In this document: positions 32,695-39,861 of the stretch, one piece after another
How positions within the stretch are numbered: position 1 is the stretch's first letter
How the letters are laid out: each line of letters opens with the position of its first letter
DNA from: Phormidesmis sp.
Lineage (GTDB): Bacteria; Cyanobacteriota; Cyanobacteriia; Leptolyngbyales; Leptolyngbyaceae
Assembly (NCBI GenBank): GCA_965248535.1
Contig: CBDFJR010000005.1
Span: 1,984,001-2,048,000 of the forward strand
Length of the DNA stretch: 64,000 nucleotides
Direction: 5' to 3'
Made by a program: the position numbers and the translations under genes
The notes under the pieces: model-generated
Database searches by the model: none
What the model saw: only the letters and a program-made list of their open reading frames with translations
Told to the model about the DNA's origin: nothing

Positions 32695-32768
32695 GGGGCT
32701 GTAGCTCAGATGGATAGAGCGACCGCCTCCTAAGCGGTAGGTCGAGGGTTCGAGTCCCGCCAGTCTCG
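32695..32768 (+). tRNA. tRNA-Arg(CCT)
   Basis: Cloverleaf with acceptor GGGGCTG/CAGTCTC, anticodon arm ACCGC-CTCCTAA-GCGGT, T-loop TTCGAGT. One A-G mismatch in the T-stem; CCA not encoded. Confidence 0.95.
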
Positions 32769-35326: not shown

Positions 35327-37117
35327 CTATCGCATGTACTGCAAAATTCCCCGTGCGATCGAGTCTGCCATCTGTTTGCGATAAGCAGCCGTCGAGAGTT
35401 TTGCCGCATCGTCTCTGCCCGTCACAAACCCGACTTCGACCAAGACCGATGGCATTGAGGTTTTTCTCAGCACATAAAATCGCGCCGTCCGCACGCCCCG
35501 ATCTTGAATTCCGGTTCCTTGCAAAACGCTATCGTGAATCGATCGCGCCAACCCTGCCCCACTTTGGTAATAGTAGGTTTCTAAACCACTAATATCTGGA
35601 CGACTGAGGTTGATCGAGTTGGCGTGAATGCTGACAAACAGCGTGGCGTTGATGCGCTCTGCCAGGCTAACGCGAGGTTCTAAATCGACATCGACATCGT
35701 TAGTGGTGCGAGTCAGCACCGTCTGCACGCCCTGCTGTTCTAGAGAGGCAGCTACTTGGCGACCAATATCCATCACGATTTCTTTTTCTTGTAGCCCGTC
35801 GATGCCAACGGCTCCGGGGTCAGGCCCGCCGTGCCCTGGATCGATCACGACCACTACTTTGCCATTGGGGACGCGAGGCAGATAGACGGGCGGCGCGTTG
35901 GTAGACGGCAGGGGGATGTTAGATCCAGGAATGCCGCCTGGCGACACGGGGAACAAGGACGATCGCCGCAGTTGCAGGGCGAGAAGCTGCTGACTGGGTT
36001 GATTGATCTGCCCGATTTGCGTGCCCGATGCTGGCGAGAGAAAAATTGCTACTGTGCTCGGATCGTCTTGCCGCAAGCGGACTTGTAGAAGAGGACTGCT
36101 GGCGGTGAGTCGTGGCCCTTGCACCGATCGGTCTAACCGTGCTGAAGGAATCGTGATGCGATAAGCGCCGGAGGCTCGATCCCACCCTGAGGTGTAGCGA
36201 ATCGGACGATCGGAGCGAATCAATAGCTGCCGACTGCCCTCTTCTAACTCAACGGACTGAATGGTTGCCAGCCCGCTGCTGGGAGGTTGACTGCTCTCTG
36301 GGTTGGTTGCCATCCCGGTTTGAGGCAGCAAGACGATTCCCGTTGAGCCGCTGGCGCTGGCCTGCCAGTCACCACTGCTAGGAGATGACATCAACAGCGT
36401 TAGGCGCACCACGGGCGGAGACGAGGGCAGTTGGGTCACCTGCACTCGATTGACTCCGTTGCGGTTGACGAGAAAATCACGAGACGCGAGGCTGGGCGCG
36501 ATCGTAGCTCCATAGAGATCGACGAGGATCTGACGGCGATCGCCCGATCGCTGCACGCGTGTTTGGGGCTGACCGCCACTGGTGCGAATAAAAAACCCAT
36601 CGGGGGTCGGTTGAATGCTCTGAATCTGCGTAGCGCCGATCGCGAGGCTGGGATTGTTTGACCCGATCGTGGGCACCGTCACCGAGGAAGGATCGCCCGT
36701 CGCAGAGGGCGCTGAGGTCATTTGAGGAGTCGGAAGCTGCACCGTCCAGCTTTGGGGAGACGCGCCGCGAAACCGCACCTGATTGGGGTCGATCGTATAG
36801 CCGGGTGCTAGCTCTACCACGATGCGGGCCGTGTCGCGATCGAACTGCCCCACCCGCAGCGATTGAATCGAGCTTCCGTTGCCCGGTTGCGTCACCGCAG
36901 GGCGACCGAGGCGAATTCCGGGGAGGTCGATCACTAACCGGGTTGGGTTAGCAATTAGCTGCGCTCTGGGCTGCACGCCTTCATCGGTGGTGAACTCTAG
37001 ACGGTTTTGGTTAGCATCAAACCGCCAAAACTGTAGTTTGGCTGCTTGAGCAGGCAATGTAACTAGAAAAAAGGCAAAAGGTAGCAGAAAAAAGAAAAAA
37101 TTAGCCGCTCCTTTCAC
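35327..37117 (-). CDS. amiC: N-acetylmuramoyl-L-alanine amidase (AMIN domains + Amidase_3)
   Basis: IDPGHGG, SIHAN, LVEVGF motifs; signal peptide after GTG 37117; upstream of murI. Confidence 0.92.
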   Translation of the reverse strand: MKGAANFFFFLLPFAFFLVTLPAQAAKLQFWRFDANQNRLEFTTDEGVQPRAQLIANPTRLVIDLPGIRLGRPAVTQPGNGSSIQSLRVGQFDRDTARIVVELAPGYTIDPNQVRFRGASPQSWTVQLPTPQMTSAPSATGDPSSVTVPTIGSNNPSLAIGATQIQSIQPTPDGFFIRTSGGQPQTRVQRSGDRRQILVDLYGATIAPSLASRDFLVNRNGVNRVQVTQLPSSPPVVRLTLLMSSPSSGDWQASASGSTGIVLLPQTGMATNPESSQPPSSGLATIQSVELEEGSRQLLIRSDRPIRYTSGWDRASGAYRITIPSARLDRSVQGPRLTASSPLLQVRLRQDDPSTVAIFLSPASGTQIGQINQPSQQLLALQLRRSSLFPVSPGGIPGSNIPLPSTNAPPVYLPRVPNGKVVVVIDPGHGGPDPGAVGIDGLQEKEIVMDIGRQVAASLEQQGVQTVLTRTTNDVDVDLEPRVSLAERINATLFVSIHANSINLSRPDISGLETYYYQSGAGLARSIHDSVLQGTGIQDRGVRTARFYVLRKTSMPSVLVEVGFVTGRDDAAKLSTAAYRKQMADSIARGILQYMR

Positions 37118-37853
37118 GACTGTTTGATTGATTTTTTCTGGCTTTTTTTGAACTAGTTGAGATAATAATCCGCTGCGTTTCAAAGCAATTTCTCCTGATA
37201 AGCCTCGTATCTTTGAAGGGGTTGACAAATCGAAAGTTATCTAAGATTTAAGGCGCAAATTCCTGCGATTGGTCATGTTTTTAAGCAGATACAAGGCTGA
37301 GTTAGATGGCATTTTGACTCTGCCTAAAACGATAAGATTGCCAGTCTTGCAACCTGAATACTGGGGAGCACTCTCCTCAGTGAAAAGAATTCATCAAGAG
37401 CCAAGACCGTGGTTGTTGTTTAGTATTCTCAAGTCGATCGCGCCTTTCTGGATAATCTATAAAAATCACAGAAGTTTGATGCCCCTCGAATTTTGGAGAC
37501 GCAGAGATCGACAGTCAAGTTTCGGAAAGTATCTATAAGATTTTGACTCGAAGCGTTTGATGGCATAGGAGAAGTGAGGCAGGAAGCAGCGTGGTTTGGG
37601 TGAGTGCGTTTTTGCCAAATTTATCTAATCAACAAGAATTAGATTTGGGCTACAGCATTCTAATACACTTGCTTTCTGCTCAAAATATTTTTTTGATGAT
37701 TTTGAACGAGTTGGGGGCAGCGATCGGGCAAACCAGATCAGTGTCTTGCGTCAATGTCAGTCATAAATAATGCGGTGCTCACCGTGTTTTGTATGGATAC
37801 TATGGAGGAAGGACGGGTGAGGCAGCGTCAACCACCCCACCCACAAGGGGATG

Positions 37854-38258
37854 CTGCGATTCGTTCAGTCTAAATGAGTAGGAATACTCAAGGACGACTG
37901 GCAAGGACAAAGAAGGGAGCAATCCCGACCGAACCTTGGCAACTTGATAGCCATGTAGGTGAGGGTGACATTCCCAAGTCCTACCCCGTAGGTGCAGCGG
38001 TGAAAGCACGACCCCTATCGAGGAGACTAGCCATCAAACCGATAAAGCGGGGCGAAAGACGGTAACTAACAGCCTCAGTGGGTAATCCCTTTAGCAAGAA
38101 CCCATGAGTAGCGAAAGCAAAGATGCACTTGAACCACCGGGATGTGGAACCAGCGAAATCAGGCTCTATGCGCTGGAGCCAAAAGGCAAAGGGTAAATCG
38201 GGATAGCAGTTCACCCGCTGACCATCATGCACTCCAAGAACCCCGGTGGACAGTATCA
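37854..38258 (+). mobile_element. 5' fragment (domain I only) of a group II intron, probably chloroplast-like IIB
   Basis: Starts CTGCGATTCGTTCAGTCT (GUGYG-like) exactly inside the IS right-end hairpin; GNRA-capped hairpins (GTGAAAGC, GGCGAAAGAC, GCGAAAGC); EBS-like loops. No RT ORF, DV or DVI seen. Confidence 0.7.
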
Positions 38259-38845
38259 CTATACTGATTTCCTCGACTATCGACCGCCGGGGAGACAATG
38301 CCCAAATCGACTCCTACAAACTCGTCGGTCGCAGCAAATTCAGGAGTTTCAATCTCCAGAACAACGTGCAGCCACCAACGCCCTTTGCGGTCTTGCAGCA
38401 AGTCTGCACTGGTGTTTTTCCAGGTCAGATATTGGCGATAGTATTCAGCAATCTCAAAGGTCAGTTTGACCCGTCTCTTGAGGCTGAGAATCGTCACTTC
38501 GCTGCGGTCAAACCAGATCGTGTAAGACCGAGCATCGTAGCGAATGGGGCAACACTTAGAGGTTGGACAATTGACCGTCTTGCCCTTCTTTTTCAGGGTC
38601 TTGGCAGATTTCAAAGCCTCGGTTGCTTTGACTCGTGCAGCACAGACCAGTTGAGAAGGAAGTCCAGTCTGAGCGCGATGGTCGTAGTAGGTTGCTTTGT
38701 GCAACTCTACGCCATTTGCCAAGTCGTTTTCCCATCCATGCTGAGACACGGCATTGAACGACTAGGTGTATTGCTCAATCGTTTGAGACAGCACCTGAGC
38801 CGTTGCGATGTCGGGTTTGAGTTGGATGCGAATCGTTCTCTGCGT
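38259..38845 (-). pseudogene. tnpB: tnpB pseudogene
   Basis: Start codon reads ACG (38845), in-frame TAG at codon 28 (38762-38764), truncated just after RuvC-I VGVDLG. Confidence 0.88.
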
Positions 38846-39030
38846 ACAGATATACTACCATCATATGGGGCTGGTGTTATCTGTCATTTGCAGAGATTAC
38901 GTGCGAATCTGCGGGGCGTTGAACCCCTTGACCCGCGCACCTATCCCTCCCAACCCACAAGGGGAGTGGGTTTCCCGGTGACGCAATGAACCAAAATGAA
39001 GGTTTTGGGAATTGTTGTGTTAAATATCAC

Positions 39031-39063
39031 ACTATAACGTTACAACATACTATAACGTTACAA
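39031..39063. repeat. Tandem direct repeat ACTATAACGTTACAA x2 (18-bp period)
   Basis: Identical 15-mers at 39031 and 39049, each with a TAACGTTA palindromic core. Confidence 0.85.
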
Positions 39064-39486
39064 AAGTCTCACCGTCTCAAAGCCTAAAGGATGTTTCCGA
39101 GGGCAATCGCCGTGAGAAATTTCATCAAACTCCCGTTAGATCCCGTTAAGCCCGATCGTCTGAGAAGCCAGGAATAATAAAAACCTCCAGAGTTTTGGCT
39201 CTAGAGGTCGGACAGTTAAATGCTGAGTTATGGATACACAGGCATTTCTTCCAATTTCGGAAACTATGAAGACCCGATTTTTAAACTCGCATCCTCGCTG
39301 ATCTCAAACAAGGGCAAAATGTTTTAGTTGCCGCTCACGGAAATTCTCTGCGATCGTTGATCATGGCTCTTGACCGTCTCACCCTACCCACGATCGCCCA
39401 TTTAGACCTCGCAACTAGAGTCCCGATCGTCCATGCCATAGACACACACGGCAACGCAACCAACAAACTTGTTTTGACTGAAGACT

Positions 39487-39861
39487 ATGCAAATCAACCA
39501 TCCTGACGTTTTGACAGAAGTCACCGCTGCCTTTGAGCGCTATGAAGCGGCTTTAGGAGACAACGATGTCACGACGCTGCATGAATTATTTCTCAACAGT
39601 GCTCACACAATTCGCTATGGTGTGGCTGAAAATCTCTATGGATATGATGCGATCGCGGCCTTTCGCGATGCCCGCTCTCCGATCAATCTCGATCGGATTT
39701 TGCGAAACACCGTGATCACCACCTATGGACAAGAGTTTGCCACCGCTAATACCGAGTTTCAGCGCCGAGGATCTGGGCTAATCGGGCGGCAGAGTCAAAC
39801 TTGGGTAAAGGCACCTGAAGGGTGGCGCGTCGCCTGTGCCCACGTCTCGCTATTGGCCTAA
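39487..39861 (+). CDS. HpxZ/AtzH-like (DUF3225) protein
   Basis: [38 protein letters not shown]. Confidence 0.88.

Follow-up and report, generated by a model that had tools for sequence, protein, structure and literature searches.

The window examined here is a stretch of 64,000 nucleotides (nt) from contig CBDFJR010000005.1 of the cyanobacterium Phormidesmis sp. (positions 1,984,001 to 2,048,000). It carries a decayed transposon of the TnpB type into which part of a group II intron has been inserted. The locus is very probably a relic of two-layer parasitism, in which an insertion sequence (IS) of the IS200/IS605 family was invaded by a IIB-type intron, and a deletion followed. This reading draws on the junctions of the inserted segment, its homology, the complementarity of exon- and intron-binding sites (EBS and IBS), and the finding of this junction type in further genomes. 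An initial annotation, made from the letters of the window alone, had described a group II intron fragment lying antisense in the right-end (RE) hairpin of a TnpB transposon. The intron assignment is borne out by homology to complete introns with domains V and VI (D5-D6) and reverse transcriptase (RT)/maturase open reading frames (ORFs), by a domain-I fold, and by an exact match of 5′ ends. The antisense position in the RE hairpin is confirmed by alignment to an intact copy and by the TnpB domains of that copy. The extent first given was correct at its start, 37854, but the segment ends at 38261 and not at 38266.

Results

The insertion lies inside the right-end hairpin of a tnpB element

The genome to which the window belongs (G000) was searched with a 174-amino-acid (aa) frame from the minus strand (38225-38749). 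The search retrieved a 91% identical region within a 377-aa open frame on another contig (G000:C2, locus L005). This copy of the IS is intact and served as reference; its 374-aa TnpB ORF has the OrfB_IS605 (PF01385) and Cas12f1-like_TNB (PF07282) domains. A second decayed copy, L002, lies at G000:C5:460k. Since the intact copy fixes both junctions, they can be placed in the window to the base. In the alignment of the three copies the flanks diverge to the left of GTCAAC, and all three then share GTCAAC[C/T]ACCCCACCCAC[A/G]AGGGGATG. On the plus strand the window reads GTCAACCACCCCACCCACAAGGGGATG (37827-37853), followed by CTGCGATTCGTTCAGTC... Read on the element's top strand, which is the minus strand, this RE tip comprises the 3′ arm of the RE hairpin and its loop. 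Past the common tip the intact copy reads GGGCTTGTGATTCA into the tnpB stop codon; the window and L002 read CTGCGATTCGTTCAG. Similarity to the intact copy breaks off at 37853/37854, inside the hairpin stem, and picks up again at 38262 (TACTGATTTCC). The intervening 408 nt (37854-38261) stand in place of ∼560 nt of the intact element (L005 947-1506), and the stretch lost comprises the C-terminal half of tnpB and the remainder of the right end.

What is left of tnpB encodes a protein 91% identical to that of the intact copy, but the start codon is ACG for ATG (38843-38845) and an in-frame TAG (38762-38764) occupies the place of a Trp codon. Pfam gave no match to this remnant alone. At the opposite extremity, TTCAT (38986-38990, minus strand) adjoins the left end (LE) in 4 of 4 copies, and this outermost motif may be a conserved target rather than element sequence. 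Membership of the IS200/IS605 family is indicated by similar subterminal hairpins at both ends, by the lack of inverted terminal repeats and by the conserved short target beside the LE. In the intact copy the RE hairpin reads CCCCATCC-CCTCGT-GGGTGGGG on the top strand, where TCCCCTYGTGGGT is common to the LE and RE hairpins.

No Y1 (HUH) transposase is encoded inside the element itself; G000 has 11 matches to this family (PF01797), all above cut-off and six spanning at least ∼95% of the profile. By analogy with known TnpB systems, the omegaRNA scaffold would overlap the 3′ end of tnpB and the right end. Rfam returned no omegaRNA family for the right end of the intact copy, only a chance-level HEARO match (18 bits) on the other strand.

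The inserted segment corresponds to domain I of a group II intron

DNA searches covered 90 genomes of the same order and matched the 408-nt segment in 20, G000 included, at 66-74% identity over 185-406 nt; many of these genomes carry several copies of its relatives. At two loci, L022 and L020, the match forms the 5′ part of an ORF-less element of ∼810 nt that ends on the same strand in Rfam Intron_gpII D5-D6 (RF00029; 49.5 and 46.1 bits, respectively). At eleven loci an ORF with RVT_N, RVT_1 and mostly GIIM domains lies downstream of the intron relatives. In a listing of 5′ ends, GTGCGATTCGTT begins 15 relatives directly after unrelated exons, which places the 5′ end of the intron exactly at 37854. 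The consensus fold of the window segment and nine relatives contains 61 pairs, 30 of them with compensatory changes.

The closest relative found (L137, on a metagenome contig) is 80.8% identical over the fragment, and its RT ORF is frameshifted. The best structure match of this ORF is chain C of 6me0 (E = 9.8e-52), which we take to be the Thermosynechococcus elongatus TeI4h IIB ribonucleoprotein; the values for the GsI-IIC RT and LtrA are 7.7e-27 and 3.3e-23. The intron is called IIB-type on the basis of this affinity. Judged by homology, the 408-nt segment is domain I of such an intron, with domains II-VI and any ORF missing. The catalytic domain V and the branch-site domain VI are absent from the window, which has no RF00029 match, and homology ends at about intron nt 405. 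The fragment contains no intron-encoded RT/maturase ORF; the overlapping ORFs have no Pfam match and are chance frames. Elsewhere in G000 there are one GIIM (maturase-type) ORF and nine D5-D6 matches, at least four of which belong to another intron family. An IStron, which carries a group I intron in sense orientation, was considered and ruled out: the ribozyme here is group II, antisense and incomplete.

Guide loops covary with the exons and largely pair with the hairpin

A species-representative genome collection was scanned for the 5′ end of the intron family (71 loci), and these loci together with those from the order gave 82 distinct junction rows. A conserved domain-I hairpin contains a GAC, and the 6-mer whose end is two bases upstream of it was read as EBS1. 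Freely sliding registers were too permissive for EBS1 (own exon 4.79 versus other 3.96), and the fixed register was used. In this register pairing with the own exon averaged 4.49 of 6 bases, versus 2.40 for non-own exons (n = 36), and 7 of 36 were perfect; the EBS1 hairpin is also present in the consensus fold (columns 241-252). The loop CACCC (38212-38216), proposed as EBS1 in the initial annotation, is upheld by this family-wide covariation.

The EBS2 proposed there, the loop CCCTTTAG (38087-38094), had to be given up. The loop is conserved whatever the exon, and relatives with unrelated exons keep CCCNTCGAGCA at this place. An unbiased scan for 5-mers complementary to positions -16 to -5 of the own exon peaked elsewhere, at the position of TGTGG (38143-38147), in nine sequences that have different exon types. 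The corresponding fixed register sets exon -13 to -9 against the loop two bases upstream of a conserved CCAGC. It gave an own mean of 3.75 of 5 versus 1.58 for non-own exons (n = 20), with seven perfect own pairings and 4 among the non-own combinations tallied. A test of EBS/IBS covariation thus retained the first EBS1 position and relocated EBS2 to TGTGG.

The combined EBS score of the window site is 9/11, which is inside the range of bona fide relatives; scores of at least 9/11 occur at only 24 of 127,968 positions (64-kb window, both strands). These pairings make the window flank a credible, though imperfect, guided target. A top-strand site, GTGGGTG/GGG (here and below, a slash within a sequence marks an intron junction where two exon or intron ends meet), was tried as the true target and rejected: EBS1 pairs 6/6, but EBS2 does not fit.

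The same junction type recurs in end hairpins of other genomes

Junctions outside G000 came from a junction pattern scan (7 loci), a search with the C-first 5′-end pattern (6 loci) and a metagenome scan (1 locus). Only L112 was relevant among the seven loci of the first scan, the other six being other introns or chance matches, and L118 was dropped because it lacks all four domain-I motifs checked. Eight junctions of introns starting with C (CUGCG) were obtained, of which five are in demonstrable IS605-type end hairpins: four at homologous RE tips, two each in G000 and in genome G090, and one in a left-end hairpin beside an intact 400-aa TnpB. The remaining three comprise two in look-alike hairpins without a visible TnpB and one in rpoC1.

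Two contig ends of G090 carry RE tips with 4 mismatches in 27 bases, and the 49 nt of intron that come next are the same in both. A third G090 contig end has a 375-aa TnpB frame, then ...ACAAGCCC, and then the reverse complement of intron D6-D5. This TnpB is 37% identical to the TnpB of G000, and the sequence after it reads ...TTACAAGCCC. The 3′ junction, ...CCAGC/GGGCTTGT, is at the predicted site. On the intron strand it reads ...CTTAGCCAGC/GGGCTTGTAAC, and the 3′ exon GGGCTTGTAAC is the one predicted, because the intact G000 site reads GGGGATG/GGGCTTGTG. An unoccupied copy of the hairpin was not found in G090. In a Coleofasciculaceae metagenome-assembled genome (MAG), a contig end has the intron in a left-end hairpin, on the other strand and 110 nt from the intact 400-aa TnpB; at a second contig end of the same MAG the intron is in a similar hairpin downstream of petA. 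The intron of L137 is in a hairpin with a similar 28-nt tip, and its EBS2, AAAAG, pairs 5/5 with CTTTT and its EBS1 5/6 (read by hand).

Five of eight junctions, together with the G090 3′ junction beside an intact tnpB, lend moderate strength to the proposal of the initial annotation that this intron lineage homes to IS200/IS605 end hairpins. From sequence comparison, the CUGCG lineage seems to prey on TnpB transposons.

The ends of the lineage depart from the usual form. The 5′ boundary of the window intron is CUGCG and does not fit GUGYG, as GUGCG in 15 relatives does. All eight C-first junctions read G/CUGCG, and C at position +1 is therefore a trait of the lineage and not local decay. An intron start at G37853 with an inserted C was rejected, as both the EBS1 and the EBS2 register worsen (by hand). 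The sole 3′ end seen (L144, at the end of G090:C88, 2560-2618) is ...AGC/, versus the usual ...AY and ...AC in relatives; in a hand fold, the bulged A is the seventh base from this end. Once the lariat has formed, the penultimate intron base is held to be in contact with the first one; the consensus is AY (PMC4238363). Going by this one 3′ end, C1 and the penultimate G may be a covarying Watson-Crick replacement of the usual contact between G1 and the penultimate A.

Two occupied copies in the same genome

The RE hairpin motif occurs four times in G000: empty in the intact IS and in a derivative resembling a miniature inverted-repeat transposable element (MITE), and occupied in the window and L002. 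The MITE-like derivative (L141 1180-1530; G000:C2:1360.3-1360.7k) is ∼380 nt long, lacks tnpB, and keeps the left end and an unoccupied RE hairpin, GGGGATG/AGGCTTGC. L002 has the same RE tip as the window, followed by intron nt 1-279 and by a further deletion, equivalent to window 38133-38479, between two CTTGA motifs. It adjoins a gene encoding the motif ANFLMRCIFTMFAED, which resembles an insertion motif in Hymenobacter MmeI_N genes (see below), probably by coincidence.

The flanks of the window copy and L002 are different, and both copies keep the LE and a 25-27-nt RE tip. RE tip and intron show a single difference in 299 aligned bases; in the IS parts there are 37 in 511 bases and, in addition, a 49-nt indel (Fisher p = 4e-7). 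Such uneven divergence points to two homing events into diverged IS copies, or to gene conversion. Most likely L002 goes back to a separate homing, with a diverged IS copy as target, and later underwent a deletion of its own at the CTTGA microhomology.

The hybrid of IS and intron stub could alternatively be a mobile unit of its own, moved after the deletion by TnpA acting in trans to give L002. The shared ends with different flanks, the 11 Y1-transposase matches and the existence of the MITE-like derivative would all suit such a unit. Even divergence would then be expected along the hybrid, but the IS parts are 7% diverged with a 49-nt indel while intron and tip differ at 1 of 299 bases, and the RE hairpin is shortened. 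Transposition as one unit fits this pattern poorly, and we consider it rather unlikely.

Proposed history and points against it

We infer retrohoming as the mechanism, the order of events, and the loss of TnpA recognition and omegaRNA function. The first layer is a tnpB-only IS200/IS605-family insertion sequence (37827-38990), the top strand of which corresponds to the minus strand of the window. The second would be a IIB-type intron, with kin of the Thermosynechococcus type, that reverse-spliced into the bottom strand of the RE hairpin exactly between GGGGATG and GGGCTTGT; insertion into the bottom strand would account for its antisense orientation to tnpB. The target would have been chosen by the guide loops, EBS2 TGTGG on CCACA in the 5′ arm and loop, and EBS1 CACCCG on GGGATG in the 3′ arm. 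Lying antisense to tnpB, the intron cannot excise itself from the IS transcript. The intron would part the last 27 nt and the adjoining guide from the upstream scaffold, and would leave 5 of 8 pairs of the RE hairpin stem intact. A later deletion between nt ∼405 of the intron and codon ∼195 of tnpB would have taken intron domains II-VI, the C-terminal half of tnpB and the presumed coding region of the guide-RNA scaffold. In the window, the intron and the IS are now both dead.

Several observations weigh against this history or against the homing of a lineage to end hairpins. No Rfam group II match was obtained in the whole window at gathering thresholds, nor in 37000-39500 and 37820-38280 at E up to 10. 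The initial annotation had looked to such models for confirmation; their silence on the fragment is uninformative, because the complete relative L022 also receives a D5/D6 match only and none for D1-D4. G000 has no full-length member of this intron lineage, its two matches both being fragments, and gene conversion between IS copies could be the source of their near-identical intron parts. The first intron base is C and not the near-invariant G. Hairpin energies are not significant: the DNA fold of the RE hairpin is -8.0 kcal/mol in the intact copy versus -3.6 kcal/mol in the interrupted window version, and 8 of 200 shuffles fold as well as the intact RE; the LE hairpin (-6.6 kcal/mol) folds no better than shuffles. 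The case for functional hairpins is therefore based on the motif shared by LE and RE and on the architecture of the family, not on folding energy. At the junctions of G090 and Coleofasciculaceae the contigs break off after only 49-52 nt of intron, and L121 and L137 have no visible TnpB in the sequence examined. The window EBS1/IBS1 pairing is only 4/6, with mismatches at -3 and -6. L122 (3476-4365), of the same CUGCG type, is an ORF-less intron in rpoC1 of an Oscillatoria record and not in an IS, and has 24 unexplained bases ahead of CUGCG.

The last two points would also follow from a one-off ectopic retrotransposition into a GC-rich palindrome, the other cases being coincidence or one hybrid spread by the IS. 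So would the many unrelated sites of the wider family, such as MmeI-type genes and a ∼100-nt hairpin element, and the fact that no more than three further sources, two MAGs and one metagenome contig, have hairpin junctions. A single event is nevertheless hard to reconcile with an insertion point in the 3′ arm that G000 and G090 share at only 37% identity between their TnpBs, or with the identical intron parts that, in each of the two genomes, adjoin differing RE tips. The left-end hairpin of another intact TnpB element has been invaded as well, and EBS2 pairs 5/5 both in the window and in L137. We regard a one-off event as improbable, slightly more so than transposition of the hybrid. The idea that the 408-nt segment is a native structured RNA of an IS variant, for instance an alternative omegaRNA scaffold, would agree with the missing Rfam group II match and with the expected place of the scaffold, but can practically be dismissed, since the segment is on the strand opposite tnpB, aligns end to end with introns in which D5-D6 and RT/maturase ORFs follow, and is absent from the intact IS.

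Features of the window

The features of the decayed element and of the intron fragment are listed in Table 1. The sole RNA family match at gathering level in the window is a tRNA gene (Rfam, 59.9 bits) at 32695-32768.

Table 1. Positions in the window of the decayed insertion sequence, the intron fragment and the candidate guide and target sites
Feature	Position	Strand	Remarks
IS200/IS605-type element, tnpB-only (IS1341-like), decayed	37827-38990		top strand = window minus strand
RE tip, last 27 nt of the right end of the element	37827-37853	-	25/27 identical to L005, 25/25 to L002
IBS2, CCACA	37841-37845	+	5′ exon -13 to -9; 5/5 Watson-Crick with EBS2
IBS1, GGGATG	37848-37853	+	5′ exon -6 to -1; 4/6 with EBS1
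IIB-type group II intron, 5′ fragment (domain I)	37854-38261	+	about intron nt 1-405; antisense to tnpB
Conserved domain-I loop, CCCTTTAG	38087-38094	+	earlier EBS2 candidate
EBS2, TGTGG	38143-38147	+	peak of complementarity scan and fixed-register covariation
EBS1 hairpin loop, TTCACCCG	38210-38217	+	CAG/CTG stem; EBS1 = CACCCG, 38212-38217
tnpB pseudogene	38262-38845	-	about the first 195 of 374 codons, compared with L005
LE, left end of the element	38846-38990	-	common to window, L005, L002 and the MITE-like copy
LE hairpin, arms AACCCAC and GTGGGTT	38952-38972	-	7-bp stem, 7-nt loop

Insertion sites of the wider intron family

Judged by exon sequence, 18 of the 80 non-window junction rows are in TnpB contexts, and in 11 of these a Pfam OrfB_IS605 or TNB frame abuts the junction. 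Nine of the 18 end ...GGAGTGT/, six of them just after a GAATCCCC...GGGGA hairpin downstream of tnpB and in sense orientation; the rest are inside tnpB, seven at EDLNVxG, one at YTSQxC and one at CxxCG...DRD. The sense sublineage (L021 1200-1260; L046, L057, L061, L084 and L086) follows the terminal hairpin downstream of tnpB at a distance of a few bases, with the junction ...GAATCCCC..GGGGAGTGT/ near or at the right-end boundary. Splicing of these introns could rejoin the guide-RNA scaffold to the guide. At L084 (401-1500), an RT-maturase-HNH ORF ends ∼190 nt before the 5′ end of the next intron, at a TnpB-type hairpin, and at L038 (85-130) an intron 3′ end (GGTTAAC) is separated by 7 nt from the 5′ end of another intron. 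The 24 extra bases of L122 lie between the exon end predicted from the reading frame (EBS1 match 6/6) and a CTGCGATTCG motif.

Other exon clusters are unrelated to IS605. In Hymenobacter, the introns of L039, L059, L073 and L097 interrupt MmeI-type genes with an MmeI_N domain at a single conserved motif, ..RCLFTMF..E/. As 5′ exon, the family's largest exon cluster has an imperfect hairpin of ∼100 nt, ...CATAAC..AGCGGCGGC...CCGCTCAAC.., found downstream of diverse, unrelated genes (L106 1500-2290, i.e. G000:C5:793.5-794.3k; L133, L135 and L136; in cluster B, for example, L020, L022, L053 and L091). In G000 the same hairpin also serves as 5′ exon for another ORF-less intron, present in multiple copies and beginning with GTGTACGCCC; four copies of this intron were seen, within the nine D5-D6 matches of the genome, and one ∼100-nt hairpin site is empty.

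Discussion

The copy in the window is a dead relic and has no consequence for its host; its interest lies in the lineage to which it points. It is conceivable, though somewhat less likely than not, that a distinct group II lineage, present across cyanobacterial orders, is specialised for reverse splicing into terminal hairpins of IS605-family TnpB elements, on their non-transposed (bottom) strand. It would read the hairpin arms with both guide loops and act as a natural antagonist of RNA-guided transposons, with non-canonical intron boundaries. By analogy with known systems, the targeted hairpin would be the one that TnpA needs, and would also close the guide-RNA scaffold of TnpB. If this is true, the antisense intron would split the scaffold from the guide and shorten the TnpA hairpin, and would thus be a sequence-specific antagonist. 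If the lineage is active, it would be a natural case of a retroelement that disables an RNA-guided transposon at its most conserved non-coding site. Its EBS/hairpin pairs would then also be material for work on the recognition of structured DNA by group II introns, and its boundaries would put the contact of first and penultimate intron nucleotide to a natural test.

Group II introns that target IS200/IS605 elements are already published, and the idea of a parasite of a parasite is not new. The end-hairpin target, the antisense orientation and the unusual intron ends appear to be new; none was found in the literature searched, from which subscription journals and intron databases were excluded.

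A close precedent is family F4 of T. elongatus (TeI3/TeI4), with three introns at a conserved site in ISEL1, an IS of the IS200 family (Mohr, Ghanem and Lambowitz 2010, PMC2882425). As described there, these are likewise cyanobacterial IIB-type introns with ORF-less derivatives mobilised in trans, one family of which homes to an IS200-family element. The passages of that paper on the ISEL1 introns, unlike our data, do not state a terminal-hairpin site, antisense orientation or a C-first start, and the window copy differs in being only a 5′ stub. Group II introns encoding RT-maturase-HNH proteins have also been described at specific sites in the tnpB ORFs of cyanobacterial IS605/IS605B elements (Kapitonov, Makarova and Koonin 2016, PMC4810608). 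Parasitism of TnpB transposons in cyanobacteria is common to both cases, and so are identical intron copies in different IS copies. The tnpB sites EDLNV, YTSQxC and CxxCG...DRD of the wider family are of the same kind as those reported (PMC4810608). Those insertions are within the tnpB coding sequence and, according to the legend of their Supplemental Figure 9A, are drawn in ORF orientation, whereas the window intron occupies a non-coding end hairpin on the opposite strand.

The use of a DNA stem-loop as target landmark is a likeness to IIC and IIC-attC introns, whose sites adjoin terminator or attC stem-loops. In IIC introns the insertion point lies beyond the stem-loop, IBS1 is short, and no EBS2 is known. 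Here, in contrast, insertion is inside the 3′ arm, and EBS1 and EBS2 both pair with the hairpin sequence itself. The intron-encoded protein of the relative L137 is moreover far closer to the IIB RT than to the GsI-IIC RT. Bacterial-C (IIC) introns are described as preferring terminators (PMC8919778).

IStrons, in which a group I intron is fused to an IS200/IS605 element with TnpB (PMC4227781, PMC10690162), also combine an intron and a TnpB transposon at one locus, and their intron is reported to be able to interfere with guide-RNA production. An IStron, however, has a sense group I intron and moves as one unit with its IS, whereas the intron described here is group II, antisense, and unspliceable from the IS transcript.

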